DNA from: Gammaproteobacteria bacterium
GTDB lineage: Bacteria; Pseudomonadota; Gammaproteobacteria; JADZEE01
Direction: 5' to 3'
Assembly (NCBI GenBank): GCA_050183625.1
Contig: JBFXBD010000022.1
Location: 23,052 to 87,051 of the forward strand
DNA length: 64,000 bases
Position numbers and translations under genes: made by a program. Positions 1,074-34,413 of the stretch are shown here, in pieces (position 1 is the first letter of the stretch; every line of letters begins with the position of its first letter). Below the pieces are notes generated by a model. The model did no database searches. It had not been told where the DNA came from and saw only the letters and a program-made list of their open reading frames with translations.

Positions 1074-1838
1074 TCAACGCGCCGTCCACCCGCCGTCGAT
1101 CGGAATGCAGGCCCCGGTGATCGGCCCCGACGCGGGGTTGGCCAGGAAGGCGATGAGTTCGGCGACCTGCAGCGTGGTCGCGGGCGCGCCCATGGGGCTG
1201 CCCCAGCCGACCGCCTCCAGCACACGCTCGCGTTCCAGCGGCGTCCAGTCGGGCGTGTCGGTCGGGGTCATTCCGGCGGGGCAGATGCAGTTGATGCGGA
1301 TGCCGCGGTCGGCGTAGTCGAGCGCGGCGGTCCGGGTGAGCATCAGCAGGCCGCCCTTGGACGCCGAGTAGGCCGCCGTGTACTTCAGCCCGGTGGTGGA
1401 GGTCGTCGAGCCCACGTTGATCACCGAGCCGCCGCCGCGTGCCAGCAGGTGCGGGATCGCCGCCCGCATGAGCATGAACGGGCCGAGCAGGTTCACCGCA
1501 AGGTACTGCGAGAACAGTTCCGGCGCGATTTCGTGAACGGGCAGGTAGCGCGACCGCAGGGCGGCGTTGTTGACCACGATGTCGATGCCGCCGTAGCGCT
1601 CGACGGTGGCGGCGACCAGCGCCTCGACGTGCGCGGCCTGGGAAACGTCGCCGGCAAGCGCGTGGATGTCACCGCCCGTTGCCCGCACGGCGGCCACCGT
1701 CTCGGCCAGGCGCGCCTCGCGCCGGCCGTCGATCATCACCCGCACGCCGCGGCGCGCGAGCACCTGCGCGGTCGCTGCGCCCAGGCCGCTGCCCGCGCCG
1801 GTGACGATGGCGACCAGGCCGGCAAGGGGATCGGTCAT
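1074..1838 (-). CDS. SDR-family short-chain dehydrogenase/reductase
   Basis: Internal Met start MTDPLAGLVAIVTGAGSGLGAA carries the TGxxxGxG motif, with the active-site YSASK and NNAA motifs. The complement of the upstream sequence shows GGAGGA before the ATG at 1836-1838. The longer 410-aa ORF in the track is an N-terminal over-extension. Confidence 0.8.
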   Translation of the reverse strand: MTDPLAGLVAIVTGAGSGLGAATAQVLARRGVRVMIDGRREARLAETVAAVRATGGDIHALAGDVSQAAHVEALVAATVERYGGIDIVVNNAALRSRYLPVHEIAPELFSQYLAVNLLGPFMLMRAAIPHLLARGGGSVINVGSTTSTTGLKYTAAYSASKGGLLMLTRTAALDYADRGIRINCICPAGMTPTDTPDWTPLERERVLEAVGWGSPMGAPATTLQVAELIAFLANPASGPITGACIPIDGGWTAR

Positions 1839-2043
1839 CGGGTATCCTCCGTGGTCACTGGCGCGGACGCGTGCCGTTGCGCGAATATGCGGCATCGCGC
1901 GGTTCGAGTCGACCGGCGCGTAGCTTCGCCGGCGCGACCACGCGCGCACCGGCCGTCCCGGTGTTTCTTCGGCGGTGCGGGATGATCGCCGCACAGGGCA
2001 ACCATGCGCCGGGCTGCGTGCCGGGCAGATGAGGAGCGTGCAG

Positions 2044-4494
2044 ATGTCCGAACCGATATGCAGCGGCCTGACCGTCGTCGAACTGGGCGCGGGCTCCGCC
2101 CCGGGCTCGATCGCGGGGATGATGCTCGCGGACAACGGCGCGCGCGTGCTGAAAATCGAGCCGCCGCAGGGCGATCGGCTGCGCGCCGCGGATCCCTCCG
2201 CGTTCCTGGTCTGGAACCGCGGCAAGGAGAGCGTCATCGCCGACCTGCGCACCGACGCCGGCCGGCGCGAGGTGCGCGAGATCATCGCCGCGGCGGACGT
2301 CGTCATAGAGGCATTCGGCGCCGGCCGGGCGCAGGCCTGGGGGCTGGACTACGAGGCCTTGCGCGGCGCGAACCCCGGCCTGGTGTACTGCTCGGTGAAG
2401 GGATTCGGATCGACCGGCCCGTACGCGCACCTGAGGGCGTACGAGGGCATCGTGGCCGCGAAGGCGGGCGTGTTCTCACTGGGCAACTTCGGCATTGCGC
2501 CCACGCCGATGTTCACCGGCGGCCTGTTCGCGAGCGTGGGCGCGGCACACATGGCGGTCTGCGGCATCGCCGCCGCGCTGCGGGTGCGCGGGATCACCGG
2601 GCGCGGGCAGCGCGTGGAAGCGGCGATGGTGCAGGGCGTGACCCCGATCAACTACTACGGCCTGATGGAATGGCAACTGCACGCGCGGCCGGAACTGTTG
2701 GAAAAGGTGCGCACGGCGCGCTCGCCGCGCGAGGGCGGCATCGTCGCCACGCGCATCATGATGATCGTCTGCACTGGCGACGGGCGCTGGATCCAGACCA
2801 CCATGATGCTGCCGCACCAGGCGCAGGCGCTGGTGCGCGCGGCCGGCCTGGCGCACACGATCAGCGACCCGCGCTTCAAGGATGCGCCCTACTTCGGCAG
2901 CGCGCAGGACGCGCAGGACTGGGAGGACCTGCTCTGGGAGCGCTTTCGCGAACAGCCCTGGAGCCACTGGCGCGAAGCCCTGCTGCGCGAGGCGGACATC
3001 TCGTTCGAACTGATCGGCAGCGACGTGGACGGGCTCGATCACCCGCAGTTCATCCACAACGGCGAGGTCGTCACCCTGGATGATCCGAAGCGCGGGCCGG
3101 TGCGCCAGGTCGGCCCGGTCGCGTTCTTCGATGAAACGCCCGCGCGCCTGGAGCGGTCCGCGCCTGCGCTGGGCGAGCACGGCGCGTTGCCCGCGCGCGC
3201 GGCGCCGAAGCCTTCCGGTGCCGCGGCGCCGCGCCATCCGCTGGAAGGCGTCACGATCGTCGAGTTCGGGTATTTCTATGCGATGCCCTACGGTCTGTCG
3301 ATGGCCACCGCGCTCGGTGCGCGGGTGATCAAGATCGAGCCGAAGAACGGCGATCCGATGCGCTGGAGCTACGGGCCGCCGGAGTACACGGGCTGCAAGA
3401 CCATGGAGGGCAAGGAAAGCCTGGCGATAGACCTGTCCACGCCGCAGGGGCAGGCCGTCATTCACAGGATCGTCGAAAAGGCGGACGCATTCGTCTGCGG
3501 CTTCCGCCCCGGCGTCGCCGAGCGGCTGAACCTCGGCCGCGACACGCTCGCCCGGCTCAATCCGCGGCTCGTGTATTTCCACGGCTCCGGCTACGGCGTC
3601 AGCGGCGACTACGCGTACCGGCCGATCTATGCCAGCGAGGCGATGGCGCTCGCGGGCGGGCATCATCGCCACAGCGGCTACTGGCTCGATCCGGCGCTGA
3701 CCCAGGGCATGTCGATCCCGGAACTCCAGGCGGTGATCCTGCCGCGGCTGCGCAGCCTGACCCCGGGCGATGCCTTCGCCGCGCTGTCGCTGTGCACCGG
3801 CCTGACGCTGGCGCTGCTGCACCAGCAACGCACCGGCCGGGGCCAGTTCGCCACGCGCAGCATGATCGGTGCGAACGCCTTCGGTTATTCGGACAGTTTC
3901 GTCGACTATGCCGGCAAGCCGCCGGTGCGGGTGCCGGATGCGGATCAACTGGGATTCAACGCGCTGTACCGGGTCTACCAGGCGGCGGCGGACTGGGTGT
4001 TCCTGGCGGTCATGACCCAGGGCGAGTGGGCGCGCCTGATTCAAGCGCTTCCAGGCGATCTCGGCCGCGATCAGCGCTTCGCGACCGCCGCCCTGCGCGG
4101 CGAACACGATGCGGCGCTTGCCGACGCGCTCGCCGCCGTATTCGCGCAGCGCCCGGCCGCGCAGTGGGAGGCGCTGTGCACGCCCGCCGGCGTGGCCTGC
4201 GTGAAGGTGTTCATGGTGAGCGACCCGGAGAACATGTCCGGCATGGCCGGCATGTCCGAGTTCAGCTACAACGATCCCGTGCTGCGCGAGACAGGATTCA
4301 TCGTCGATGTCGAGCATCCGATCTTCGGCCGCATCAGCCGCACCGGGCCGCCGGCGACGTTCTCGGAGACGCCGCCCCGGATCGAGGCCGGCAGCCGCAT
4401 CGGCCAGCACACCGACGCGATCCTCGCCGAGTTCGGCTATTCGCCCGCCGAGATCGCCGGCCTGCGCAGCGCCGAAGTCGTCTTCGGCGCCTGA
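2044..4494 (+). CDS. Tandem-fused family III CoA-transferase (two CaiB/BaiF domains in one ~816-aa polypeptide)
   Basis: Two complete CaiB/BaiF-like halves are present. The N-terminal half begins LTVVELGAGSAPGSIAGMMLADNGARVLKIE and the second GVTIVEFGYFYAMPYGLSMATALGARVIKIE. GAGGAG precedes the ATG at 2044. Confidence 0.8.
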   Translation: MSEPICSGLTVVELGAGSAPGSIAGMMLADNGARVLKIEPPQGDRLRAADPSAFLVWNRGKESVIADLRTDAGRREVREIIAAADVVIEAFGAGRAQAWGLDYEALRGANPGLVYCSVKGFGSTGPYAHLRAYEGIVAAKAGVFSLGNFGIAPTPMFTGGLFASVGAAHMAVCGIAAALRVRGITGRGQRVEAAMVQGVTPINYYGLMEWQLHARPELLEKVRTARSPREGGIVATRIMMIVCTGDGRWIQTTMMLPHQAQALVRAAGLAHTISDPRFKDAPYFGSAQDAQDWEDLLWERFREQPWSHWREALLREADISFELIGSDVDGLDHPQFIHNGEVVTLDDPKRGPVRQVGPVAFFDETPARLERSAPALGEHGALPARAAPKPSGAAAPRHPLEGVTIVEFGYFYAMPYGLSMATALGARVIKIEPKNGDPMRWSYGPPEYTGCKTMEGKESLAIDLSTPQGQAVIHRIVEKADAFVCGFRPGVAERLNLGRDTLARLNPRLVYFHGSGYGVSGDYAYRPIYASEAMALAGGHHRHSGYWLDPALTQGMSIPELQAVILPRLRSLTPGDAFAALSLCTGLTLALLHQQRTGRGQFATRSMIGANAFGYSDSFVDYAGKPPVRVPDADQLGFNALYRVYQAAADWVFLAVMTQGEWARLIQALPGDLGRDQRFATAALRGEHDAALADALAAVFAQRPAAQWEALCTPAGVACVKVFMVSDPENMSGMAGMSEFSYNDPVLRETGFIVDVEHPIFGRISRTGPPATFSETPPRIEAGSRIGQHTDAILAEFGYSPAEIAGLRSAEVVFGA

Positions 4495-4497
4495 GCG

Positions 4498-5340
4498 GTG
4501 GCGTCGGTGCAAGCGCCATTCGAAACCCTGGCCTGGGGCTACGGGCTGGTCGAGGGGCCCACGGTCGATGCCGGGGGCAACCTGTTCTTCAGCGATGTGG
4601 TCCAGGGCAGGGTGTACCGCCTGGATCCCGCCGGCGGCGTGCAGACGGTCGTTCCCAAGCGACGCGGCATCGGCGGCCTCGCGCTGCATGCCGATGGCGG
4701 CCTGATCCTGTCCGGGCGCGACATCGTGCACGTGCGCGACGGCCGGACGCGGGTCGTGTTCGCCATCGCCGATCTCCCGGGCTGGAACGACCTCTGCACC
4801 GATCGCGCCGGGCGGATCTACGCCGGTGCGTTGCGGTTCACGGTCTTCGACGAGCATGCGACGCCCGTCCCGGGGGAGTGCTGGTGCATCGCCGGGCCGG
4901 ATCTGGCGCGGGTGGTGTACGGCGACGTCATCCACGCCAACGGCATCGCGCTGTCGCCGGACGAGCGGCTCATCGCTCACGCCGATACCCGCCGGCAGGC
5001 GTTGCTCGTGCACGCGCTCGACGCCCGGGGGCACGCGTCGGATCGGCGCGAGATTGCGGTCGAAGGCCATCCCGACGGTCTCGCCTTCGACGATGCGGGC
5101 TGCATCTGGGTGGCGGTGGCCGGCGCGGGCTGCGTGCACCGGTACACGCCCGAGGGCGTCCTGGATCGGCGCATCGAAGTGCCCGCGCGCTACCCGACCA
5201 GCCTGTGCTTCGCCGGCACCGACCGGCGCGACCTGATCGTCGTGTCCGCGGACAACCTGCAGGTGCCGGACCGGCGGGGTTCGATCTTCCGCCTGCGCGT
5301 CGACGTCGCCGGTGCGCCGGTCCATCCGGCCCGGGTCTGA
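4498..5340 (+). CDS. SMP-30/gluconolactonase/LRE-family protein (putative lactonase)
   Basis: Beta-propeller SMP-30-like motifs are present (GYGLVEGPTVDAGGNLFFSD and HANGIALSPDERLIAHADT). A GTG start lies 4 nt after the CoA-transferase stop. Confidence 0.75.
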   Translation: MASVQAPFETLAWGYGLVEGPTVDAGGNLFFSDVVQGRVYRLDPAGGVQTVVPKRRGIGGLALHADGGLILSGRDIVHVRDGRTRVVFAIADLPGWNDLCTDRAGRIYAGALRFTVFDEHATPVPGECWCIAGPDLARVVYGDVIHANGIALSPDERLIAHADTRRQALLVHALDARGHASDRREIAVEGHPDGLAFDDAGCIWVAVAGAGCVHRYTPEGVLDRRIEVPARYPTSLCFAGTDRRDLIVVSADNLQVPDRRGSIFRLRVDVAGAPVHPARV

Positions 5341-5342
5341 CG

Positions 5343-5765
5343 ATGACGATGCGAGCGAACCGTCCCATCCCTACGCCCACCCCGGAGTCCGCCCCGTTCT
5401 GGGAGCATTGCCGTGCGCACGAGTTGTGGCTGCAGCGCTGCCTGGATTGCGCGCGGCCGTTCTTCTATCCGCGCTTTCATTGTCCGGCCTGCGCGAGCGC
5501 GCGGGTCGAGTGGTTCCGATCCGGCGGGCGCGGCCGGATCTACAGCTTCGTGATCAATCAACGCCCGCCGCCGTGGATGAACGGCCCCTACGTCATCGCC
5601 CTCGTGGAACTGGACGAAGGACCCAGGATGATGGGCAACCTGCTCGGCATCGAGCCCACGCCGGCCCGGGTGCGGGTCGACATGCCGGTCGAGGTGACGT
5701 TCGAGGATCTCGACGAACGCATCAGCCTGCCGCAGTGGCGCCCGGTGCGGGAGCCGCGCGCATGA
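5343..5765 (+). CDS. DUF35 Zn-ribbon/OB-fold protein (thiolase partner subunit)
   Basis: CLDCARPFFYPRFHCPAC is a C-x2-C...C-x2-C zinc ribbon followed by an OB fold. The gene starts 3 nt after the SMP-30 stop, and its stop overlaps the thiolase start (ATGA). Confidence 0.75.
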   Translation: MTMRANRPIPTPTPESAPFWEHCRAHELWLQRCLDCARPFFYPRFHCPACASARVEWFRSGGRGRIYSFVINQRPPPWMNGPYVIALVELDEGPRMMGNLLGIEPTPARVRVDMPVEVTFEDLDERISLPQWRPVREPRA

Positions 5766-6931
5766 CGCTGCGCTACCGTGCGGCGATCGTCGGCGCGGCC
5801 GAGTCCACGTGCCTGGGCGTCGTTCCCGACCAGACGAGCTTTCAACTGGCGCTGGATGCCGTTTCCGGCGCACTCGCCGACTGTGCGCTGCGTCCCTCGG
5901 ACATCGACGGGATCGCAGGCGATCAACCCGCCGTGCTGGCGAAGTACTTCGGCATCGTGCCGGCGTGGGCGGACAATACCCAACTCGGCGGCGGTTCGTA
6001 CCTGCTGCACGTGCGCCACGCGGCCGCGGCGATCGCCGCCGGCCTGTGCACGACGGTGCTGGTGTCGATGGGCTCGAGCGGGCGCAGCCGATTCGGCGAG
6101 CCGGGCGGCAGGCTGAGCGACGTGACCGCCGCGCAGGCCTGGCGCATGACGCCGCTGGACGATCAGTTCGAGACGCCCTACGGCATCGTCGGCCCGACCA
6201 CGACGATGGGGCTGGGCGTGATGCGCTACCTTGCCGACACGGGAACCACGCTCGAGCAACTGGCATCGGTGCCGGTCGCCCAGCGGCGCTGGGCCCAGCG
6301 CGTGCCGCGGGCGATGTACCGCGACCTCATCAGCATCGACGACGTCTTCGCCAGTCGGCCGGTGTGCTATCCGTTCCACCTGCTGCATTGCTGCCTGCAG
6401 ACCGACGGCGGCGGCGCGCTGGTGATCACCACCCCGGAGCGCGCCGCCGATCTGCCGCGACCGCCCGTGTACCTGCTGGGCTCGGGCGAGGGCGTGGAGA
6501 CCCATCTCATCAGCCAGATGGAAGATCTCACCTCCTCGGCGGCGTTCCGCCTGGCCGCGCGCGCGGCATTCGCGGAAGCCGGTATCGCCCGTGGCGAGGT
6601 CGACCACATGATGGTCTACGACGCTTTCGCGCACCTGCCGCTGTTCGCGCTGGAGGATGCCGGGTTCGTCGGCCGGGGCGAGGCGGGCGCCTTCGTCGCC
6701 GAGGGGCACACCTCGCCCGGTGGGCGCTTGCCGCTGAACACCAACGGCGGCGGTCTCTCGTATACTCACACCGGCGCGTACGGGATGTTCCTCATGCAGG
6801 AGGCAATACGGCAACTGCGCGGCGAAGCGGCGCACCAGGTGCCCGGCGTGCGCATCTCCTATTGCCATGCGATCGGCGGGCCGTTCTGGAGCGCCGCGAG
6901 CCTGCTGCTGACCAACCACGCGCCGGGCTGA
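5762..6931 (+). CDS. Thiolase-like protein (SCP-x / nonspecific lipid-transfer-protein-type thiolase)
   Basis: MTLRYRAAIVGAAES is followed by thiolase-fold motifs including the catalytic Cys region and a GGGLSYTHTGAYGMF C-terminal region. The start is translationally coupled to DUF35. Confidence 0.75.
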   Translation: MTLRYRAAIVGAAESTCLGVVPDQTSFQLALDAVSGALADCALRPSDIDGIAGDQPAVLAKYFGIVPAWADNTQLGGGSYLLHVRHAAAAIAAGLCTTVLVSMGSSGRSRFGEPGGRLSDVTAAQAWRMTPLDDQFETPYGIVGPTTTMGLGVMRYLADTGTTLEQLASVPVAQRRWAQRVPRAMYRDLISIDDVFASRPVCYPFHLLHCCLQTDGGGALVITTPERAADLPRPPVYLLGSGEGVETHLISQMEDLTSSAAFRLAARAAFAEAGIARGEVDHMMVYDAFAHLPLFALEDAGFVGRGEAGAFVAEGHTSPGGRLPLNTNGGGLSYTHTGAYGMFLMQEAIRQLRGEAAHQVPGVRISYCHAIGGPFWSAASLLLTNHAPG

Positions 6932-7011
6932 ACGCGACAAGGAGCCAGGCGCGAACGCGCAGGCGGGATGGGCGCGGGTCCACGCGCAGCTCGAGGCACT
7001 CGGAGGCAGAG

Positions 7012-8616
7012 ATGGTTGCGGCAAGTCAGTACGACGTCATCGTCATCGGCGCGGGCGCCGGTGGAGTCTACGCGGTGCACCGCTTCAGCCGGCAGGGGCT
7101 CTCCGTGCTCGCACTGGAGAGCGCCGGCGGGGTGGGTGGCGTGTGGCACCACAACTGCTATCCGGGTGCACGCGTCGACGTGCCGAGCCTGGACTACTGC
7201 TATTTCTTCTCGCGCGAGCTGTATCGCGAATGGAAGTGGCCGGAGCTGTATTCATCGCAGCCGGAACTGGAACGCTACATCAACCACGCCGCCGACAAGT
7301 TCGATCTCCGGAAGCACATCCTGCTCGACAACCGGGTGACCGAGGCGCGATGGCTTGCCGACCGCAGGCTCTGGCAGGTCGATACCGGCGCGGGCAACCG
7401 CTTCACCTGCCGCTTCCTGGTGACCGCGATGGGCAACCTGACGGCGCCGCGCAACCCGGACTTTCCGGGCCTGGACGAGTTCCGCGGCGAGTGGGTGCAG
7501 ACCTCGCGCTGGCCGCAACGCCACGTGGATCTGAAGGGGCGGCGGATCGGCGTCATCGGCAACGGCGCCTCGGGTGTCCAGGTCATCCCGCCGCTCGCCC
7601 GGGAAGCCGAGCACCTGACGGTGTTCCAGCGCACGCCGAACTACGTCGTCCCGCCGCAGAATCGCGCGGTGGACCCGGCCGAGATCGAGGCGATCGCGGA
7701 TCGGTTCGACCAGTACCGCGCGGAAGTCTTCGCCAGCGACGGCGGCACGCACCTGCCGCCGGGCCACGGCCCGGCGGACCGGTACAGCCAGGCCGAGCGC
7801 GAGCGGATCTTCGAGGAGCAGTGGCAGTTCGGCGGCCATCCCATGTCCTGGCTGTTCGACAACGCGCAGACGGACTGGGAGGTCAGCCGGATCATCTCGG
7901 AACTGCACCACGACAAGGTGCGCTCGATCGTCCGCGATCCGGCGGTGGCCGAGAAGCTCTGTCCCTACGAGCACGGCGTGGGCAACCGCCGGCTCGGCGT
8001 CTGCCAGGACTTCTACGAGACGTTCAATCGCGACAACGTCTCGCTGGTCGATCTGCGCGAGAGCCCGTTCGAGCGCTTCACTCCCACCGGCATCCGGACC
8101 CGAAGCGGCCACCACGAACTGGATCTGGTCGTGTTCGCAATCGGCTTCCGCTCCTTCACCGGCACGCTGATTGACGCCGGCATCCGCAACGAGCACGGCG
8201 CCGGCATCACGGACCATTGGAAGCCGGGCTGGAAGACCGTGCTCGGCGTGATGACGACCGGATTCCCGAACCTGTTCATGGCCTGCGGCACGGGCGGGAT
8301 CGGATTCTCCGCCAACGTGTTCCCCTTCAACGAGCAGCAGATGGACTGGATCGGCGACTGCATCGCCTGGATGGACCGCAAGGGCCACGGGACCATCGAG
8401 GCCGATCCGACCGCGCAGGAAGCCTGGGTGCGCCACGTCGCGCAGACGGCCGGCAACCGGCTGCTGATGACGCGCGGCGTCACCGACCGCAGCGTGCACG
8501 TGGATCCCGAAACCGGCACGCGGGTCTGCAATACCTACCTCGGCGGGCTGGTGGACTTCATCGCGCGCTGCGACCGAAGCGCCGCCAACGGCTACGAGGG
8601 GTTCGTCCTGCGCTGA
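7012..8616 (+). CDS. Baeyer-Villiger (type I flavin-containing) monooxygenase
   Basis: YDVIVIGAGAGGVYAVHRF is an FAD-binding GxGxxG motif. The FxGxxxHxxxW-like BVMO fingerprint region follows (FRGEWVQTSRWP), then a second Rossmann motif GRRIGVIGNGASG. GGAGG precedes the ATG at 7012. Confidence 0.85.
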   Translation: MVAASQYDVIVIGAGAGGVYAVHRFSRQGLSVLALESAGGVGGVWHHNCYPGARVDVPSLDYCYFFSRELYREWKWPELYSSQPELERYINHAADKFDLRKHILLDNRVTEARWLADRRLWQVDTGAGNRFTCRFLVTAMGNLTAPRNPDFPGLDEFRGEWVQTSRWPQRHVDLKGRRIGVIGNGASGVQVIPPLAREAEHLTVFQRTPNYVVPPQNRAVDPAEIEAIADRFDQYRAEVFASDGGTHLPPGHGPADRYSQAERERIFEEQWQFGGHPMSWLFDNAQTDWEVSRIISELHHDKVRSIVRDPAVAEKLCPYEHGVGNRRLGVCQDFYETFNRDNVSLVDLRESPFERFTPTGIRTRSGHHELDLVVFAIGFRSFTGTLIDAGIRNEHGAGITDHWKPGWKTVLGVMTTGFPNLFMACGTGGIGFSANVFPFNEQQMDWIGDCIAWMDRKGHGTIEADPTAQEAWVRHVAQTAGNRLLMTRGVTDRSVHVDPETGTRVCNTYLGGLVDFIARCDRSAANGYEGFVLR

Positions 8617-8668: not shown

Positions 8669-10177
8669 ATGAGATTGCCATTCCTGGCGACGTGGCTGAT
8701 GGTGCTGGGCATCCTGTCGTGCCGCCCGGCTTCTGCGCAGTCGTTCTGGGTCGAGGAGGTCGTCACCGGGCTGAACGTGCCCTGGTCGATGGCCTGGCTG
8801 CCGGACGGGGACATGCTGATCACCGAGAAGTTCGGTGGCCTGCGCGTGGTGCGCGACGGCAAGCTGGTGCCGGAGCCCGTGGCCGGCGTTCCGGCGACCT
8901 ACCGGGGCAGCATCAACGGCCTGCTGGACATCGCGCTCGATCCGGATTTCGCGACCAACCAGCGCGTGTACCTGACCTACGACGAAGGCACCGAAACGCG
9001 CGGGCACGGCGTGCTCTATCGCGCGCGCTGGGATGGTCGTGCACTGGTCGACGGCAAGGTCATCTATCGCACGACGCTTGCGAGCGGGCTGGCACCGCAC
9101 TCCGGGCTCACGCGCCTGGCGTTCCTGCCGGACAAGACGCTGCTGGTCGGCGTGGTCGTGGACGATACGCGCCGGTTCCTGGCGCAGCGCCTGAACTACG
9201 ACCACGGCAAGATCCTGCGCCTGGATCGCGACGGTGGCGCTGTGGCCGACAATCCATTCGCCGCGCAGGACGGAGCCCTGCCGCAGGTGTACTCGCGCGG
9301 ACACCGGGTGATCACGGGGCTCGCGCACGATCCCGTCTCCGGAGCCGTGTGGGAGGTCGAGAACGGTCCGCAGGGCGGCGATGAGCTGAACGTGATCCGG
9401 GCGGGCGCGAACTACGGCTGGCCGGACGCGACCTATGGCATCCAGTACGACGGGCAAACGATCAGCACGGCACCCGAGCAGGCGGGGATCGACAAGCCGC
9501 TGGCCTACTGGGTGCCGTCCATCGCGCCTTCCGGGCTGGCGTTCGTGCGCGGCGGGCGCTACCCGCGGTGGCAGGAGGCGATCCTGGTCGGTGCACTGTC
9601 CGGGCGCCACCTGCGGCTCGTGCACCTGCGTGACGGCAGGCCCGATGCGCAGGAGACGCTGCTCGCGGATCTGAAGGAACGCATCCGGGACGTGCGCGTC
9701 GGGCCCGACGGCTACATCTACCTGCTGACGGACAACCAGCACGGGCGCCTGCTGCGGCTGCGTCCAGGTATGCCGCCGGCCGATGCGCACGCGCGCGTTG
9801 CCCGTGCGCTGCCCGAGCTGACCAACCCGACGACCGATACGATGGACCTGAAGCCCAAGCCGGTGGACGCCGATCGCGGCGCACGGCTGTTCGCGCAGCA
9901 GTGCGCGCAGTGTCACGCGACGACCCCGGGCGCCGGCACACCCGCCGGACCAAGCCTCGCCGGCGTCGTCGGCGCCCGGCCGGCCACCGGCAGCTACCCG
10001 TATTCGGATGAACTGCGCAATGCGGCCCTGCGTTGGGAGTCCCCGATCCTGGAACGCTACCTCGCCGGCCCGGACGTATTCCTGCACGGCAGCCGGATGC
10101 CCGGCCCGGCCGTACGCAGCGCCCAGGATCGCGCCGACCTCATCGGCTACCTGCAGCGCTGCTGCGCCGCCCCCTGA
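8669..10177 (+). CDS. PQQ-dependent sugar dehydrogenase (sGDH/YliI-like beta-propeller) fused to a C-terminal cytochrome c domain
   Basis: There is a signal peptide and a sorbosone/glucose dehydrogenase-like propeller region. The C-terminal roughly 100 aa carry a CAQCH heme-binding motif. Confidence 0.75.
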   Translation: MRLPFLATWLMVLGILSCRPASAQSFWVEEVVTGLNVPWSMAWLPDGDMLITEKFGGLRVVRDGKLVPEPVAGVPATYRGSINGLLDIALDPDFATNQRVYLTYDEGTETRGHGVLYRARWDGRALVDGKVIYRTTLASGLAPHSGLTRLAFLPDKTLLVGVVVDDTRRFLAQRLNYDHGKILRLDRDGGAVADNPFAAQDGALPQVYSRGHRVITGLAHDPVSGAVWEVENGPQGGDELNVIRAGANYGWPDATYGIQYDGQTISTAPEQAGIDKPLAYWVPSIAPSGLAFVRGGRYPRWQEAILVGALSGRHLRLVHLRDGRPDAQETLLADLKERIRDVRVGPDGYIYLLTDNQHGRLLRLRPGMPPADAHARVARALPELTNPTTDTMDLKPKPVDADRGARLFAQQCAQCHATTPGAGTPAGPSLAGVVGARPATGSYPYSDELRNAALRWESPILERYLAGPDVFLHGSRMPGPAVRSAQDRADLIGYLQRCCAAP

Positions 10178-14349: not shown

Positions 14350-15456
14350 TCATGGTGAACGGTGGGCGCCGTCGAACGAGGCCGCCTTGACCAGCGCGTA
14401 GACGTTGCCGCCCGGGGCGAGTCCGAGCGTGGCGGCGGCCTCGCGGGTGATGCGGGAGCGCAGGCGCGCGCCGCCGATGTCCACGAGCACGTCGGCGAAT
14501 GGCGAGCGCGGGTCGGCGTCGATCTGCAGCACCGTGCCGGGGAATACGTTGCGGATGCTCACCGGGCCGGGCGGTGCGAGTGCCAGCGCCACGTCGCGCG
14601 CGCGGATGCGCACCCGGACCTCGCCTCCCACCGGGACCTGCACCCGCGGGATCACCATGGCGCGGCCGTGCATGTCCAGGTGGGTGAGCAGGTATGACTC
14701 GTCCTGCCCCGTCACGCGCGCCGCGAGCACGACGCCGGCGTCGAAGCTGCCGGTGGCGTAGTCCAGGTTCATGCGTTCGAGCACGTCGCTGGCCGGCCCC
14801 TGCGCGAGCACGCTGCCCGCGGCGAGCATCACCACGTGGTCGGCCAGGCGCGCCACCTCGGTCACGTCGTGGCTGACGTAGAACACCGGCACCGGCATGT
14901 CCGCGCGTAGCGCGACCAGCAGCGCGAGCAGTTCCTCGCGCCCGGCCGCGTCGAGCGACGACAGCGGCTCGTCCATGAGCAGCACGGCCGGCCGTCCCAG
15001 CAGCGCGCGCGCCAGTGCGACGCGCTGGCGCTCGCCGCCGGACAGGCGCGCCGTGCCGCGTTCGAGCAGGTGGGCGATGCCGACCTGCGCGGCGATCCGC
15101 TCCAGTTCGCGCGCCGCGCCGCCGCCCTCGCCGAACGCGCGCCGCGTGGCATAGCGCAGGTTGCCGCGAACGCTCAGGTGCGGGAACAGGCTCGGCTCCT
15201 GGAACACATACCCCACGCCACGGCGGTGCGTGGGCAGGAAGGTTCCGGTTGCGTCGTCCTGCCAGGATTCCGCGCCGATGCGCACGTGCCCGGCCAGCCG
15301 CGCCAGCCCGGCGATGCAGCGCAGCAGCGTGGTCTTGCCGCTGCCGGACGGACCGAACAGCGCGGTGACGCCCGCCATCGGCGCGCTGAACCGGGCCCGC
15401 AGCGAGAAATCGCCCAGCCGGCCCGTGCAGGCGATGTCGATGCCGGTTCCGCTCAT
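14350..15456 (-). CDS. modC: Molybdate ABC transporter ATP-binding protein with C-terminal TOBE/Mop domain
   Basis: Walker [10 protein letters not shown], signature [15 protein letters not shown] and Walker [12 protein letters not shown] are present, followed by a C-terminal Mop domain. The ATG at 15454-15456 overlaps the modB stop (ATGA). The 588-aa track ORF is an over-extension. Confidence 0.85.
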
Positions 15457-16157
15457 GCACGCAGCCGCCGGGCGCGCCGCTCGATCAACATGACGGCCAG
15501 GATCACCAGGAACGAGAACGCCACCATGCCGCCCGCCAGCGCGTGCGTCGCAGCCCACTGGCCGGTCTCCACGTAGTCGTAGATGGCCACCGAAAGGACC
15601 TTCGTCTCGCCGGGGATGTTGCCGCCGATCATCAGTACGACGCCGAACTCGCCCACGGTGTGCGCGAAGCCCAGCACCGCGCCGGTGGCCAGGCCCGGCC
15701 GCGCGAGCGGCAGCGAAACGCTCCAGAACCGATCCCAGGGGCCGGCGCGCAGCGTCGCGGCGACTTCCAGCGGCCGCTCGCCGATCGCCTCGAAGGCATT
15801 GCGGATCGGTTGCACCACGAACGGCATCGAGTAGATCACCGAGCCGAACACCAGCCCTTCGAATGTGAACGCCAGCGTGCGCAGGCCCCACAGCGGGGCG
15901 ATTGCGCCGCCGGGGCCGCCCGGCCCCAGGAACAACAGCAGGTAGAAGCCCAGCACCGTGGGCGGCAGTACCAGCGGCAGGGCGACGATGGCGGCCGCGG
16001 CCTCGCGCCAGCGCCGGCGTGACCGCGCCAGCCACCAGGCCAGCGGCGTGGAGACGACGAGCAGCACGGCCGTGGAGATCGACGCCAGCTCCAGCGTGAG
16101 CCGGATCGGTTCCCACAGTTCCGAAGAAGCCGGCAGCGACGTCGACACCCGGATCAA
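15453..16157 (-). CDS. modB: Molybdate ABC transporter permease
   Basis: A ModB-like permease of 234 aa with an EAA-like loop. It overlaps modA and modC by 4 nt each. Confidence 0.85.
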
Positions 16158-16909
16158 TCGCCGGGGCCGTAGCCGTACTGGACTTTCACCGCGCGCGCCG
16201 CATCGCCGCGCAGGAACGCGAGAAAGGCGCGCGCGGCGGCGGTGTCACCGGCAGCGAGCAGCACGGCGTCCTGGGCGATCGGCGCGTGCAGGGTCTCCGG
16301 GACCACCCAGCGCGAACCGCGCGCGTGGCCGGCCACCTGCGACAGGGCCACGAACCCCAGTTCCGCATTGCCGGTCTCGATGAACTGGAAGGTCTGGGCG
16401 ATGTTCTGGCCCTGGACCAGCTTCGGTTCGATGGCCGCATGTACGCCGAGTGCCTTCATGGTTTCCACCGCGGCTGCGCCGTAGGGGGCCGCCGTCGGGC
16501 TGGCGATCGCAAGCCGCGTGAAGGCGGCCTCCCGCAGCGTCGTATCGCCCTTCACCCGCCCGGAGTCGGCACTGTAGAGCACGAGCCGCCCGGTGGCATA
16601 GGTGAACAGGGTGTCCTTCACGGCCAGTCCCGCCGCGACTGCGTCCGCCGGCCGCTGCCGGTCGGCGGAGAGGAACACCTGAAACGGCGCACCTTGTGTG
16701 ATCTGGGCGTACAACTGCCCCGTGGAACCGAAGCTGTAGAGAACCTTGTGGCCGCTGGCCTGTTCGAACTTCGCGGCGATCGCGTTGGCGGCCTCGGTGA
16801 AATTGGCCGCGACCGCGACCCGCACCTCGTCGGCGCGGGCACCCGCGGCGCAGGTGCCAATCACGACGAGGTTGAGCAGGTGGCCGAGGAAGGAACGATG
16901 GGCCCGCAT
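16154..16909 (-). CDS. modA: Molybdate-binding periplasmic protein
   Basis: A signal peptide and ModA-family motifs ([28 protein letters not shown]) are present. It is the first gene of the modABC operon. Confidence 0.8.
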
Positions 16910-16920
16910 GTAAACGCCCT

Positions 16921-16945
16921 CGATATATTTACATATACATAACGG
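16921..16945. promoter_or_regulatory. ModE-type operator (molybdate-responsive repressor binding site) in the modA / outer-membrane-channel divergent region
   Basis: cgatatatttacatatacataacgg follows the CG(A/T)TATAT-N-TACATAACG architecture of E. coli ModE boxes, recalled from memory. It is the only AT-rich island in this roughly 130-bp intergenic region. Confidence 0.55.
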
Positions 16946-17040
16946 AGCCTATCCAATTAGACTGCGACCCGCAAGGCGCGAGTCCGCACGCGCGGACCTG
17001 CGCCACGCGCCTTCCTTGCCTCACGACGGAGCCGGGATCC

Positions 17041-18420
17041 ATGTCGCGACCGATTCGATGGCCGTTCACCCTGTTGCTGCTGGCCGCCATCGCGGGACCG
17101 GTTCGCGCGGGCGAGGACCCCTGGCGCCTCGGCCAGGCGCTCGGCGTGCCGGCATGGCTGTCGCTCGGCGGCGAGTATCGCGTCCGCCTGGAGAACCTGG
17201 ACAACCAGTTCCGCGCCGGCCGGCGCGGCGGGGACCAGGTATTGGTCCATCGCACCAGCCTGCTGGCCCGGATCGATCTGCCTTCCGCGCGCATCGTCGC
17301 CGAGGCACTGGACGCACGTGCCTCGCTCGCCGATGCCGGCACGCCCCTGTCGACCGCCGACGTCAACCCGATCGACCTGCTGCAGGCGTACCTTGAATTG
17401 ACGCTGCGCGACGCCCCGGTGACGGGCGGCACGAGCGTCCTGCGGCTCGGACGGTTCACGATGGACATGGGCAGCCGCCGCCTCGTGGCGCGCAATCGCT
17501 ACCGAAACACCATCAATGCGTTCACGGGAGCGGACTGGACGATCACCGGCGCCAGCCAGACGCAGACGCGGCTTTTCTTCGTCCTGCCCGTGCAACGACT
17601 GGCCGGCACGAACCTGCTGGAAGCCGAGGCGCAGGCCGACGACCAGTCCGGCGACGTCCGGCTCTGGGGATTTCACCATGCGCGTGGGGGCCTGCCCGCG
17701 AACAGCCGGGGCGAGTTCTACGTGCTCGGGCTCGACGAACGCGACGACGACGCGCTGGCCACGCGCGACCGCCGCCTGTACACCGCCGGCCTGCGCCTGT
17801 ACCGCGACCCGGTGCCCGGCGCGTTCGATTTCCAGATCGAATCGGCACTGCAGTTCGGCGAGTCCAGGGCGAGCGCCAGCGCCGCGGATCGCCGCGACCT
17901 GGATCACCGCGCCCACTTTCAACACGTCGAGGTCGGGTACAGCTTCCAGCGCCCGTGGAAGCCGCGCCTGGTGGTCCAGTACGACTACGCCAGCGGCGAC
18001 GACTCGCCGCTCGACGACGAGAACAATCAGTTCGACACGCTGTTCGGCGCCCGCCGCTTCGACTTCGGCCCCACCGGCGGGTACGGCGCGTTCGCGCGCG
18101 CGAACATCAGCTCCCCGGGGCTGCGCCTGCTGCTGGCACCCTCGGCGCGCGTGAAGATCATGGCCGCGCTGCGCGGCTTCTGGCTGGCTTCGGATCGGGA
18201 CGCCTGGACCGGAGCCGGGGTGCGCGACGCCACCGGCAATTCGGGCAGCTACATTGGGACGCAGGCGGAAGCGGAGATCCGCTGGAGCATCATCCCCGGC
18301 AACCTGGATCTGGAAACCGGTATCGCGCACGTGTCCGGCGGTGGGCTCATGGAACGCCCGCCCGGCAATGGAAACGGCGATCCGACCTACGTCTTCCTCG
18401 CGGCGACCTTCACGTTCTGA
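17041..18420 (+). CDS. Alginate-export-family (AlgE-like) outer-membrane beta-barrel channel
   Basis: There is a signal peptide, an alternating beta-strand pattern and a C-terminal aromatic residue (ATFTF). It lies divergent from modA across the ModE box. Confidence 0.65.
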   Translation: MSRPIRWPFTLLLLAAIAGPVRAGEDPWRLGQALGVPAWLSLGGEYRVRLENLDNQFRAGRRGGDQVLVHRTSLLARIDLPSARIVAEALDARASLADAGTPLSTADVNPIDLLQAYLELTLRDAPVTGGTSVLRLGRFTMDMGSRRLVARNRYRNTINAFTGADWTITGASQTQTRLFFVLPVQRLAGTNLLEAEAQADDQSGDVRLWGFHHARGGLPANSRGEFYVLGLDERDDDALATRDRRLYTAGLRLYRDPVPGAFDFQIESALQFGESRASASAADRRDLDHRAHFQHVEVGYSFQRPWKPRLVVQYDYASGDDSPLDDENNQFDTLFGARRFDFGPTGGYGAFARANISSPGLRLLLAPSARVKIMAALRGFWLASDRDAWTGAGVRDATGNSGSYIGTQAEAEIRWSIIPGNLDLETGIAHVSGGGLMERPPGNGNGDPTYVFLAATFTF

Positions 18421-20884: not shown

Positions 20885-21262
20885 GGCATGCCACTGTTTC
20901 GCACGTCCGCGGGCAACCATTCGGGCCGTGCGTCGCAGGCACGAACCGCGGTGGCGGATCGATCCGCGGCGACGCCGCGCCGGTTTCCTGGCCTGGATCA
21001 AGTCCGCGGCGTTGCGGCGGCCGGCGCGTCGCTGATCCGCAATACCGGCCGCTGTTAGAATCCCGCAAGCTGTTTCATCCGCGCCGCGCTTGGGCTCATG
21101 CCGCACGCGCCTGCCTGAACGGCGGGCCGTTTTCGTTGTCCGATGCATCTTGTGCCGGTGTCGGGGGCATCGCCGAACAGTGCCGGGGGTCCCGTCGCGC
21201 GATCATCGCGCCGCCGGCAGCCGCGGCTTTTCGGTCGCGGTTCTATTTCGAAGGAGGAGTTC

Positions 21263-22189
21263 ATGCACGCAACCCGAGTGGCGTCCCTGGTGTCGGGCGC
21301 ATTGTTGATGCAGGCCGCCGCGCTGGCTGGCGCGGCGCAGGAGGATCGGCCCGTGACGCTGCGATTCGCCGGCGCGGTCAACGGCAGCGCGTTCGAATGC
21401 GGCAGGCAGTATTCCGGCGTCGGCAGCGGTGGTTCCACGATCGAACCGGGTGACTTCCGCTTCTTCGTCTCGGCCGTCGAATTGATCGGCCGGGACGGCA
21501 AGGCGGTGCCGGTCGCGCTGGACCAGGACGGCGTCTGGCAGTATCGGGACGTGGCGCTGGTCGATCTCGAAAACGGCGCCGGCGCGTGCGGCAACGGCAC
21601 CGCGGCGGTCCACGCCGAGGTCAGCGGCCGGGTTCCGCGCGGCGAGTACACCGGCGTGCGCTTCACCCTGGGCGTGCCCTTCGAGTCGAACCACGGCGAC
21701 CCCACCCTCGCGCCATCCCCGCTCAACCTCACCGCGATGTTCTGGAACTGGCAGGGCGGGTACAAGTTCCTGAAGGTCGACCTGAACAGTGCGGTTCAAT
21801 CCGCGCATGCCATGGCCGGCGCTCATGGCGCCGACGCGGGCGCGCGCCATGCCGGCGGTCACGACGCCGCCAGCGCCCCGGGCTTCGCCCTGCACCTGGG
21901 CAGCACCCAGTGCGCCGCCCGGTCGCAGACCGAGAGCCCCTCCGCGTGCCGGAATCCGAACCGCGTGACCGTGACGTTCGAGGGTTTCGATCCGGACCGC
22001 AATACGATCGTCGCCGACATCGGCGCGGTGCTGGCCGGTACCGATGTCGAGCGCAACGCTCCGGACACGTCGCCCGGCTGCATGAGCTTTCCGAAGGACG
22101 CCGATTGCACCGCGGTGATGAATGCCCTCGGGCTGCCCTACGACGGCATCGCACCGGCCGGCGCGCAGAAGTTCTTCAGCATGAAGTAA
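21263..22189 (+). CDS. MbnP-like periplasmic partner protein (metallo-mystery pair)
   Basis: AAGGAGGA precedes the ATG. There is a signal peptide, several Cys residues and a Trp-rich core (WNWQGGYKFLKVD). It lies immediately upstream of a diheme peroxidase, as in MbnP/MbnH pairs. Confidence 0.5.
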   Translation: MHATRVASLVSGALLMQAAALAGAAQEDRPVTLRFAGAVNGSAFECGRQYSGVGSGGSTIEPGDFRFFVSAVELIGRDGKAVPVALDQDGVWQYRDVALVDLENGAGACGNGTAAVHAEVSGRVPRGEYTGVRFTLGVPFESNHGDPTLAPSPLNLTAMFWNWQGGYKFLKVDLNSAVQSAHAMAGAHGADAGARHAGGHDAASAPGFALHLGSTQCAARSQTESPSACRNPNRVTVTFEGFDPDRNTIVADIGAVLAGTDVERNAPDTSPGCMSFPKDADCTAVMNALGLPYDGIAPAGAQKFFSMK

Positions 22190-22197
22190 GGGCGCTC

Positions 22198-23364
22198 ATG
22201 TCGCATCGTGTAGGCCGCGCCGCGGGCCGCGGGGCGCGGGGCGTGAGGGCCATGCTCGCCGGCGCCGCCATGGTGCTGGCGCCGGTGCTCGTCGCCGGTG
22301 CGCCCGGCTGGGATATTCCCGCCTGGGTTCCGCCGCCGCGCGAGCCCGCCGACAATCCGGCGACGCCCGCCAAGGTCGAACTCGGCCGGCACCTGTTCCA
22401 CGACAGGCGCCTGTCGGCGGATCAGTCGATGGCGTGCGCCACCTGCCACGAGCAGGCGCGGGCCTTCACCGACGGCAAGGCCGCCGCGACCGGTGTGACG
22501 GGCCAGACCGGCAGGCGCAACGCCATGCCGCTGGCGAACGTCGCCTACCTGCCTACGCTCACCTGGGGCAACCCGCAGATCGACTCCCTCGAAGCCCAGT
22601 CGCTGATCCCCCTGTTCGGCGAGCACCCGGTGGAGATGGGAATGGCGGGTAGGGAAGCGCTGCTGTTCGAGCGGCTGCGCGGCGAGCCGATCTACCGGGA
22701 GCTGTTCGCCGCGGCGTTCCCCGAGCAGGCGCGCGCCGGCCCGGCGCAACTGTATTCGCTGGCGACCGTCACTCGGGCGATTGCCGCCTTCGAGCGCACG
22801 CTGCTGTCCTTCGACTCGCCCTACGACCGCTACAAGTACGGCCGGGAGGAGGGTGCGCTCAACGCGGCCGCCCGGCGCGGCGAGGCGCTGTTCTTCGGTG
22901 AGAAGATGGAGTGCTACCACTGCCACGCCGGCCTGAACTTCACCGACAATCTCCAGCATGCCCGGCTGGCGTTTCCCGAGAAGGGCTTCCACAACACCGG
23001 CCTGTACGACACGGACGGCAGGGGCGCATATCCGGCCGGGCACGAGGGCATTGCGGAGTTCACCGGGCGCGAGGGCGACATGGGCAGGTTCCGCACGCCG
23101 AGCCTGCGCAACGTCGCGCTCACCGCGCCCTACATGCACGACGGATCGATCGACACCCTGGAGGAGGTGATCCGCGGCCACTACGCCGTAAAAGGGCGCG
23201 CGGCCTTCGGCGGGCAGGCGCCGAATCCGCTGCGCAGCCCGCTCGTCGCCGGGTTCCAGGTCAGCGATGCGGAGGTGCGCGATCTCGTCGAGTTCCTGAA
23301 GTCCCTGACCGACGAGCGCTTCGTCCGCAATCCAAAGTTTTCCGACCCCTGGCCGGCGCAGTGA
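22198..23364 (+). CDS. Diheme cytochrome c peroxidase family protein (MbnH/MauG-like)
   Basis: Two CxxCH motifs (CATCH and CYHCH) are present, with the CCP/MauG family conserved region PSLRNVALTAPYMHDGS. It starts 9 nt after the upstream gene. Confidence 0.8.
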   Translation: MSHRVGRAAGRGARGVRAMLAGAAMVLAPVLVAGAPGWDIPAWVPPPREPADNPATPAKVELGRHLFHDRRLSADQSMACATCHEQARAFTDGKAAATGVTGQTGRRNAMPLANVAYLPTLTWGNPQIDSLEAQSLIPLFGEHPVEMGMAGREALLFERLRGEPIYRELFAAAFPEQARAGPAQLYSLATVTRAIAAFERTLLSFDSPYDRYKYGREEGALNAAARRGEALFFGEKMECYHCHAGLNFTDNLQHARLAFPEKGFHNTGLYDTDGRGAYPAGHEGIAEFTGREGDMGRFRTPSLRNVALTAPYMHDGSIDTLEEVIRGHYAVKGRAAFGGQAPNPLRSPLVAGFQVSDAEVRDLVEFLKSLTDERFVRNPKFSDPWPAQ

Positions 23365-29109: not shown

Positions 29110-29202
29110 CGCGCAAGCGATCAGGGCGGCAGCGACAGAGGCGTCGGCAAGTGCTACGGTAACGGCGCATCGTCGCCAGCCCACCACGCATCGGAGCGTG
29201 CA

Positions 29203-34302: not shown

Positions 34303-34413
34303 CGCTTTCTCCGTAAGTTTGGCGCGCGGCGCACCGCGCCCGGATGCGGGCCATTCTGCTGCCGTGACGCCAGTGCGGCAAGGCGATCGCCGCCGGTTGA
34401 GCGGGGGGCGGAT

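Follow-up and report, generated by a model that had tools for sequence, protein, structure and literature searches.

A five-gene bacterial cluster combining a two-domain CoA-transferase, a cysteine-less thiolase-like protein with its DUF35 partner, a propeller hydrolase and a Baeyer-Villiger monooxygenase: a tentative retro-aldol reading

Which reaction sequence is encoded by a gene cluster that brings together a coenzyme A (CoA) transferase, a lactonase-like hydrolase, a DUF35/thiolase-like pair and a Baeyer-Villiger monooxygenase (BVMO)? The question is raised by positions 2044 to 8616 of a stretch of 64,000 nucleotides from a Gammaproteobacteria bacterium of the JADZEE01 lineage (assembly GCA_050183625.1, contig JBFXBD010000022.1, positions 23,052 to 87,051), here called the window, in which all positions are counted. 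An earlier note on this DNA had proposed a route from ketone to lactone, hydroxy acid and CoA ester, followed by cleavage of a C-C bond. In our reading the genes are co-transcribed and serve to break down a carboxylic acid or ketone substrate, with CoA transfer followed by retro-aldol cleavage, Baeyer-Villiger oxidation and hydrolysis. It is the reading that we prefer, although its chance of being right is put somewhat below even. In the cluster itself, enzymes of known kinds are combined in a new way, and one protein represents a variant of the DUF35-dependent lyases with a thiolase fold that differs in its active site and is uncharacterised.

The breaking of the C-C bond would fall to an SCP2-thiolase-like protein of 389 aa (5762 to 6931, + strand), in which Pfam recognises only Thiolase_C_1, with no match to Thiolase_N. 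Its matches in the PDB are 4U4E, which is uncharacterised and was deposited as "Thiolase" (E=2e-100), Ltp2 (6OK1, E=8e-47) and Sal (9MYR, E=1e-39). SCP2 thiolases possess a nucleophilic Cys and, in the xDCx motif (HDCF), an acid/base Cys (PMC12329534). At the nucleophile position the window protein reads L75-G-G-G-S79, with Gly77 and Gly78, and the xxCxxG cysteine of the SCP2 thiolases is absent. The HDCF motif has been replaced by Y286-D-A-F289. A family search returned thousands of matches, and the conservation of the motifs was read from the 120 closest. Among these, Gly77 and YDAF are invariant, while position 78 is occupied by Thr or Gly; all of them, abundant ocean SAR202 proteins included, carry the Cys-less motifs. 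The SCP2-thiolase histidine is present: His336 in NTNGGGLSYTHTG is likewise invariant and aligns with the His of the GHP loop of control thiolases. These controls, true thiolases from two of the fetched loci (L016 and L060), display ACATG or ACASG, HDCF or HDAL, and GHP in the same alignment. As the controls do show the Cys motifs, the alignment tells a thiolase from the Cys-less kind. By both cysteine tests the window protein is thus predicted not to be a thiolase. Thiolysis of a 3-oxoacyl-CoA is not expected, because both catalytic cysteines are absent and invariantly replaced.

The best characterised PDB relatives of the thiolase-like protein and of its DUF35 neighbor are Ltp2-ChsH2 from Thermomonospora curvata (6OK1) and Sal-Shy from Comamonas testosteroni (9MYR), the DUF35-dependent retro-aldolases of steroid and bile-acid side chains. 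Ltp2 contains a Gly at the nucleophile position, a YDHF motif that provides the Tyr base and the His of the oxyanion hole, and a second catalytic Tyr (Tyr344), whereas Sal combines the Gly with YDCY, the catalytic Cys304 and Gln352 (PMC12329534). The window protein shares with both the SCP2-thiolase fold, the Gly in place of the nucleophilic Cys, the Tyr of YDxF/Y that serves as catalytic base and a partner with a DUF35 zinc ribbon and OB fold. However, the second catalytic residue is different. In the alignment to 6OK1, Tyr286 is kept, but Ala288 stands for the His and His336 takes the position of Tyr344; in the alignment to 9MYR, the Tyr is again kept, with Ala288 for Cys304 and His336 for Gln352. 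Neither the Ltp2 motif nor the Sal motif was therefore found. Judged from these residues, the protein is probably a β-hydroxyacyl-CoA retro-aldolase with a third type of active site, composed of YDAF and His336.

The DUF35 protein (140 aa; 5343 to 5765, + strand) consists of a C4 zinc ribbon and an OB fold (Pfam zf-ChsH2 and OB_ChsH2_C). The zinc-ribbon cysteines are Cys33 and Cys36 (CLDC, 33-36) and Cys47 and Cys50 (CPAC, 47-50). The best PDB matches are the DUF35 part of Shy (9MYR_B, E=2e-24) and that of ChsH2 (6OK1_B, E=3e-20), and the protein is presumably the structural partner of the thiolase-like protein. In contrast to the Ltp2 and Sal systems, it is a free protein of 140 aa rather than a C-terminal domain attached to a MaoC hydratase, and neither a hydratase nor steroid-degradation genes are located nearby. 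All close homologues of the thiolase-like gene that were examined are directly preceded by a DUF35 gene, and these two form the only obligate pair in the cluster.

The pair had earlier been likened both to Ltp2/ChsH2 and to BbsAB of the benzylsuccinate pathway. The aldolase side of this analogy holds up, but the thiolytic side does not: BbsB, a true thiolase, has the catalytic cysteines, both of which are missing from the window protein. The scores against the NCBIfam models for BbsA and BbsB also fall far under the cut-offs (26.7 versus 250 and 106 versus 750, respectively). The resemblance to anaerobic toluene degradation is one of composition, as BbsAB and BbsEF likewise unite a C-C cleaving enzyme of the DUF35/SCP2 type with a family III CoA-transferase. 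BbsEF is made up of two polypeptides, however, while the CoA-transferase of the window is fused.

This fused family III CoA-transferase (816 aa) is encoded at 2044 to 4494 on the + strand, with an ATG start and GAGGAG 8 nt upstream. Pfam CoA_transf_3 matches in two stretches (E=4e-149), and the N-terminal half (residues ~1-385) and the C-terminal half (~396-816) each match family III chains of ~400 aa. Alignment to solved family III enzymes, including 4ED9, places Ser164 at the position of the catalytic Asp in the N-terminal half. In the C-terminal half the catalytic Asp576 is kept (PGDAF; codon 3769-3771) and aligns with the GDS of YfdW/Frc, that is, with Asp169. The G575-D576 dipeptide is invariant across 120 homologues of the CoA-transferase, in which the Asp is also confined to the C-terminal half. 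An AlphaFold2 model computed from the alignment of these homologues was very confident, with a pLDDT of 95.2 and a pTM of 0.96. Foldseek matched the two halves to single-domain chains only, the best being BbsEF (TMt 0.81), and no structure of a two-domain CoA-transferase was present in the PDB copy searched. The two halves would form an intramolecular, interlocked pseudo-dimer.

Novelty of the two-domain fusion was considered but rejected, as a known class exists with DddD and PtmU4. These are the only characterised two-domain members, the former acting as a CoA-transferase/lyase and the latter in thioacid formation (PMC6006322; PMC5395668). Like the window enzyme, both carry tandem CoA_transf_3 domains in one chain of ~800 aa and keep the essential Asp in the C-terminal domain only, the likeness being one of architecture and Asp pattern. 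Their genetic setting is different: neighbors of the dddD type or of a thioacid cassette (acyl-CoA synthetase, sulfur-carrier proteins) are absent from the locus.

The hydrolase is a six-bladed β-propeller enzyme of the SMP-30/gluconolactonase/LRE (SGL) type on the + strand, ending at 5340 (Pfam SGL, E=9e-47, residues 19-251). It comprises 280 aa when read from the GTG at 4498, or 277 aa from the GTG at 4507 that is used in public gene calls. It is cytoplasmic, with no signal peptide, and the metal-binding and catalytic residues (Glu16, Asn94, Asn145 and Asp190) are intact in the alignment with XylC (7PLB) and SMP30 (4GN7). Its relatives constitute a tight and widespread group (60-69% identity) that is labelled merely as generic sugar lactonase. 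The closest homologues, from Acidimicrobiia and Myxococcota (60-69%), stand alone.

The BVMO is a type I (FAD- and NADPH-dependent) enzyme of 534 aa from the PAMO/STMO group (7012 to 8616, + strand), with an ATG start and GGAGG 8 nt upstream. It matches PAMO over the full length (E=1e-133), STMO (E=2.5e-128) and, at ~E-110, CHMO and OTEMO (OTEMO E=1e-110). Both Rossmann motifs are present (GAGAGG, 13-18; GNGASG, 183-188), as is the second type I motif [A/G]GxWxxxx[F/Y]P[G/M]xxxD, which reads GGVWHHNCYPGARVD at residues 42-56. The catalytic pair is kept as well, Asp56 and Arg327 corresponding to Asp66 and Arg337 of PAMO. In the BVMO fingerprint FxGxxxHxxxW[P/D], found as FRGEWVQTSRWP at residues 157-168, every fixed position agrees except for the central His, which is a Gln. 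The fingerprint was seen in 122 of the 150 best BVMO cluster representatives, with His at the central position in 78 and Gln in 11. This substitution was considered as a sign of altered chemistry and rejected, the position being variable among relatives; within this clade the aligned sequences indicate that the central His is not a strict requirement. The enzyme is fairly isolated, with the best 50%-cluster representative being 52% identical and the next one 44%. BVMOs of the PAMO/STMO group typically turn open-chain ketones into esters.

For all of these proteins, the families named in the earlier note (fused CoA-transferase, SMP-30, DUF35, BVMO) are borne out by concordant Pfam/NCBIfam and PDB matches. 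As mechanical lists of open reading frames are full of spurious frames at high G+C (~70% in the window), the coding frames were chosen by the G+C content at third codon positions (GC3), after which the start codons were checked. This frame analysis, the gene calls and the Pfam/NCBIfam scans agree on five co-directional genes at 2044-8616. The CoA-transferase and SGL genes are separated by 3 nt (12 nt if the SGL gene starts at 4507), the SGL and DUF35 genes by a 2-nt gap, and the DUF35 and thiolase-like genes overlap by 4 nt (ATGA). Five genes with gaps or overlaps of 3-4 nt had been described, which is accurate for these three tight junctions but not for the fourth, where the thiolase-like and BVMO genes are 80 nt apart (6932 to 7011). 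The sole earlier in-frame start for the BVMO, a TTG at 6862, would create an overlap of 70 nt and is unsupported by homology or gene calls. The 80-nt gap, which includes the GGAGG mentioned above, has a fold z-score of -0.96 and contains no terminator-like hairpin; none was detected after the BVMO gene either. Searches of the intergenic regions for promoters, terminators and RNA elements gave nothing over background, and Rfam families gave zero matches in the region. An operon of five genes is a reasonable reading, and the genes of the module are presumably co-transcribed. The tight spacing is real but ordinary operon architecture, and it is statistically unremarkable.

The linkage of the genes is physical. 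Two Logan contigs from two sequencing runs, assembled independently of each other, agree with the window at 100% identity over 1564-7640 (L001) and 3052-7640 (L002). The genes from the CoA-transferase through the 5' part of the BVMO are therefore genuinely linked, and their linkage is no artefact of binning or assembly. Both contigs stop at position 7640, inside the BVMO gene. The shared end suggests a branch in the assembly graph, caused by strain variation. A chimera at this point is unlikely, because the alignment of the BVMO to PAMO runs unbroken across it.

How might these enzymes act together? We infer the substrate and the order of the steps as follows. The CoA-transferase, with its single C-terminal active site, would load CoA onto a β-hydroxy carboxylic acid. 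The CoA donor would be an acyl-CoA, plausibly the acetyl- or propionyl-CoA released in the second step, which would make an ATP-free cycle possible. In this second step the DUF35 protein would bind the Cys-less thiolase-like protein, which would cleave the β-hydroxyacyl-CoA in a retro-aldol reaction, releasing a ketone or aldehyde along with a short acyl-CoA. The base in this reaction would be Tyr286, from the YDAF motif, and the acid probably His336. The BVMO could subsequently insert an oxygen next to the carbonyl, resulting in an ester or lactone, which the SMP-30-type metal hydrolase would open. Finally, the short-chain dehydrogenase/reductase (SDR) that is encoded divergently from the operon might oxidise the released alcohol or, alternatively, prepare the substrate.

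Genes for an acyl-CoA dehydrogenase, a hydratase or a 3-hydroxyacyl-CoA dehydrogenase (HADH) are missing from the operon. The best fit is a substrate with a β-hydroxyl already in place, because no enzyme that installs the β-oxygen is encoded, and the route that begins with CoA transfer is the most economical, because the cleaving enzyme needs a β-hydroxyacyl-CoA and the operon has no dehydrogenase or hydratase to make one. This parallels Ltp2, where a 17-ketosteroid is released from a CoA-activated side chain, although no substrate is pointed to here. The BaiN-like flavoprotein next to the SDR, the BaiF-family transferase, the Ltp2/Sal-like aldolase and the STMO-like BVMO raised the question of a steroid or bile-acid origin. 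Such an origin was not adopted, as each of these families is broad and no further steroid-degradation genes are found in the annotated part of the window (~1-38 kb).

Which part of this cluster is conserved elsewhere? The CoA-transferase was surveyed in 79 GTDB species-representative genomes with a homologue of 46-55% identity, mostly from Actinomycetota and some from Acidobacteriota. A DUF35 gene paired with a Cys-less thiolase-like gene occurs within 10 kb of the two-domain CoA-transferase in 27 of these 79 genomes, directly adjoining it in ~15. This recurring proximity supports a functional couple. The conserved functional core of the cluster is the CoA-transferase together with the DUF35/aldolase-like pair, and the BVMO and SGL hydrolase are lineage-specific additions. 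Among 81 CoA-transferase loci (the 79 and two neighborhoods of close homologues), the commonest other genes nearby encode SDRs (53 loci), Amidohydro_2 proteins (41), acyl-CoA dehydrogenases (40), crotonases (20), acyl-CoA synthetases (20) and P450s (17), which is a typical setting for the catabolism of hydrophobic carboxylic acids. The two closest homologues (63% and 60%), too, lie amid SDRs, Amidohydro_2 proteins and acyl-CoA dehydrogenases, and one of them has a DUF35/thiolase-like pair 6 kb off.

In Actinomycetota, a tight three-gene unit was observed in which a DUF35 gene is followed by a Cys-less thiolase-like gene of a YDGF type and by the two-domain CoA-transferase (loci L046-L048, L052, L055, L060, L061, L074 and L075, at ~8.2-10.0 kb in each). 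It points to an uncharacterised conserved module that is distinct from the YDAF subtype of the window. The YDAF-type pair is also extremely abundant in marine metagenomes of Dehalococcoidia/SAR202 (~63% identity to the window protein), with one cluster seen on 67 contigs and indexed in 103 blocks. There it always stands alone and is flanked by housekeeping genes such as uvrA and an alaX-like gene (L085/L086, 10001-11182; L087, 10001-11197; proteins P0123-P0240).

Several of the results weigh against the proposed module. No BVMO homologue lies within 10 kb of the CoA-transferase in any of the 79 genomes, and an SGL gene does so in one only. The combination is likewise absent from all seven neighborhoods of the closest CoA-transferase, thiolase-like and SGL homologues, and a metagenome scan with the BVMO returned just two distant loci (36-40%). 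Among the genomes sampled, the five-gene combination was found in this organism alone and is not conserved. Moreover, the thiolase-like pairs that are linked to a CoA-transferase are mostly of the YDGF subtype and not of the YDAF subtype of the window. The SAR202 homologues, which are 63% identical, suggest a general function that is served without the other cluster genes, because they stand alone beside housekeeping genes. At the second catalytic residue the YDAF subfamily is unlike both characterised aldolases (Ala versus His or Cys; His versus Tyr or Gln), and the aldolase activity is an extrapolation for that reason. By analogy, the role of the CoA-transferase is also uncertain, since both characterised two-domain members exceed mere CoA transfer, one having lyase activity and the other transferring sulfur.

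Against this background, three other explanations of the locus have to be weighed. The order given in the earlier note would let the BVMO act at the start, on a cyclic or branched ketone that the SDR supplies. The lactone would be opened by the SGL hydrolase, the acid activated by the CoA-transferase, and the chain cleaved thiolytically by the DUF35/thiolase pair. It is compatible with the same gene set. The succession of BVMO, lactonase and CoA activation is an established one where alicyclic ketones are concerned, and it has been proposed for SAR202 (PMC5395668). BbsAB (7PXP) further illustrates that a pair of the DUF35/SCP2 kind can be a true thiolase. We nevertheless consider this order improbable. 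It is less likely because thiolysis is not expected from a protein in which both thiolase cysteines are invariantly replaced, and because the opening of a lactone gives no β-functionalised chain: it yields γ- to ω-hydroxy acids and not β-hydroxy- or β-oxoacyl chains. The cleavage requires such a β-hydroxy or β-oxo group, and the operon, being devoid of acyl-CoA dehydrogenase, hydratase and HADH, encodes nothing to supply it. Synteny support is absent as well, so that the coherence claimed for this route rests on one locus, with the BVMO near none and the SGL gene near one of the 79 CoA-transferase genes. Another order, which we hold to be just as improbable, starts with the SGL hydrolase. This enzyme would open a β-hydroxy lactone (e.g., a δ-lactone of the mevalonolactone type), the CoA-transferase would activate the acid, and cleavage would give acetyl-CoA and a hydroxy-ketone. 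The latter would be converted by the BVMO to an ester and hydrolyzed by the SGL enzyme or another esterase. Every encoded enzyme is used in this way and no outside steps are needed. The retro-aldol reading of the thiolase-like protein agrees with it, the gene order (CoA-transferase, SGL, DUF35, aldolase, BVMO) is compatible, and the conversion of an open-chain ketone to an ester is what BVMOs of the PAMO/STMO group are known for. With respect to the gene set, it is equally consistent with the locus as the route that starts with CoA transfer. It was arrived at by chemical reasoning, though, and the stand-alone SGL homologues with their generic labels speak against it.

The last explanation abandons the linear pathway altogether. 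The five genes would then be a lineage-specific set of broadly useful enzymes for catabolism or detoxification, which share a location and perhaps a transcript but act on different substrates. Each gene has its nearest relatives in different phyla and neighborhoods. For the CoA-transferase these are Actinomycetota (55-63% identity), and for the thiolase-like protein Chloroflexota (63-73%), with one homologue at 73%, the abundant marine Dehalococcoidia/SAR202 proteins at 63%, and unrelated neighbors beyond DUF35. For the SGL enzyme they are Acidimicrobiia and Myxococcota (60-69%), and the best relative of the BVMO is 52% identical. In addition, the YDAF pair and the SGL gene occur alone elsewhere, and the 80-nt gap sets the BVMO gene apart from the rest of the cluster. 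Opposed to this are the three junctions of at most 4 nt, including the ATGA overlap, which argue for co-expression and usually for a shared function. The G+C content and GC3 are uniform over the cluster and its flanks, and the association of the CoA-transferase with the DUF35/thiolase-like pair recurs in other genomes. Such a mosaic is unlikely in our estimate, but clearly less so than either of the alternative reaction orders.

Operons in which a BVMO and a hydrolase degrade ketones are known, for instance chnB/chnC for cyclohexanone and acmA/acmB for acetone, and the camphor pathway of OTEMO pairs CoA activation with Baeyer-Villiger oxidation. As in these systems, a type I BVMO is encoded in the window beside a hydrolase and a dehydrogenase. 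In contrast to them, the hydrolase is an SMP-30 β-propeller instead of an α/β-hydrolase, CoA is provided by a transferase instead of a ligase, and a DUF35/aldolase-like pair has been added. No known operon of this composition was found in a literature search, and searches for the five-gene combination and for Rv1866 yielded nothing relevant.

What would follow if the retro-aldol reading of the thiolase-like protein were correct? Many genes labelled "thiolase" or "acetyl-CoA acetyltransferase" would then encode aldol-cleaving lyases with a distinct catalytic pair, and metabolic reconstructions would change. The solved but uncharacterised structure 4U4E would also be given a function. Going further, the DUF35-linked proteins with YDAF and His336, including 4U4E and the abundant homologues from SAR202/Dehalococcoidia, which bear the label "thiolase" too, could make up a third, uncharacterised mechanistic class of β-hydroxyacyl-CoA retro-aldolases with a thiolase fold. 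With the single-site, two-domain CoA-transferase, they would sustain an ATP-independent cycle from β-hydroxy acids to ketones, which would here be passed on to the BVMO and the propeller hydrolase. This wider proposal is a speculative one, and we deem it rather doubtful. The class of the two-domain CoA-transferases counts thousands of members, and the link with a DUF35/aldolase-like pair gives a large subgroup of them a concrete role. For use in biocatalysis, the cluster offers a BVMO, a C-C lyase and a propeller lactonase encoded together, as a set of enzymes that is ready to hand. For the present its biological significance is modest, since the cluster was seen in one lineage only and no substrate is pointed to.

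On the other side of the cluster start, the divergent gene at 1074 to 1838 (- strand) was confirmed to encode the classical SDR (254 aa) that had been named as a possible source of the ketone. This is evident from Pfam (adh_short/adh_short_C2, E=1e-53 to 1e-55) and from the TGAGSGLG (residues 13-20) and YSASK (157-161) motifs; GGAGGA is found upstream of the ATG. Directly downstream of the SDR gene lies a gene for a TIGR03862/HI0933-like (BaiN-family) flavoprotein (2-1015, - strand), which is cut by the window edge, and the divergent unit therefore consists of the SDR and the flavoprotein. The intergenic region between the SDR and the CoA-transferase measures 205 bp (1839 to 2043) and, as stated in the earlier note, encodes no regulator. 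It does not contain a match to the sigma-70 consensus. An imperfect palindrome of 18 nt (78% complementary) was observed at 1916-1945; it is a candidate operator, with no regulator gene adjoining.

Past the cluster, a gene at 8669 to 10177 (+ strand) encodes a periplasmic fusion (502 aa) of a glucose/sorbosone dehydrogenase (GSDH) of the pyrroloquinoline quinone type with a cytochrome c, carrying a signal peptide (Pfam GSDH, E=1e-106, and Cytochrom_C). GSDH-family enzymes convert cyclic hemiacetals to lactones. The gene begins 52 nt past the BVMO stop, with no terminator-like structure between them. It is possibly a sixth co-transcribed gene, but its membership of the module is uncertain.

Further downstream, a molybdate transporter of the ModABC type (TOBE-domain ATPase, permease and SBP_bac_11) is encoded on the - strand, with an outer-membrane porin of the alginate-export family divergent from it (14350-18420). 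An MbnP-like protein is followed by a di-haem, MbnH-like cytochrome c peroxidase at 21152-23364 (+ strand), a pair that is usually tied to copper acquisition. An Amidohydro_2 and SDR pair is located at 27958-29988 (+ strand), and a GMC oxidoreductase is paired with a cytochrome P450 at 32200-35607 (- strand). These Amidohydro_2, SDR and P450 genes of the window are 24-30 kb off, and they belong to the same families that are among the commonest flankers of the two-domain CoA-transferase elsewhere.

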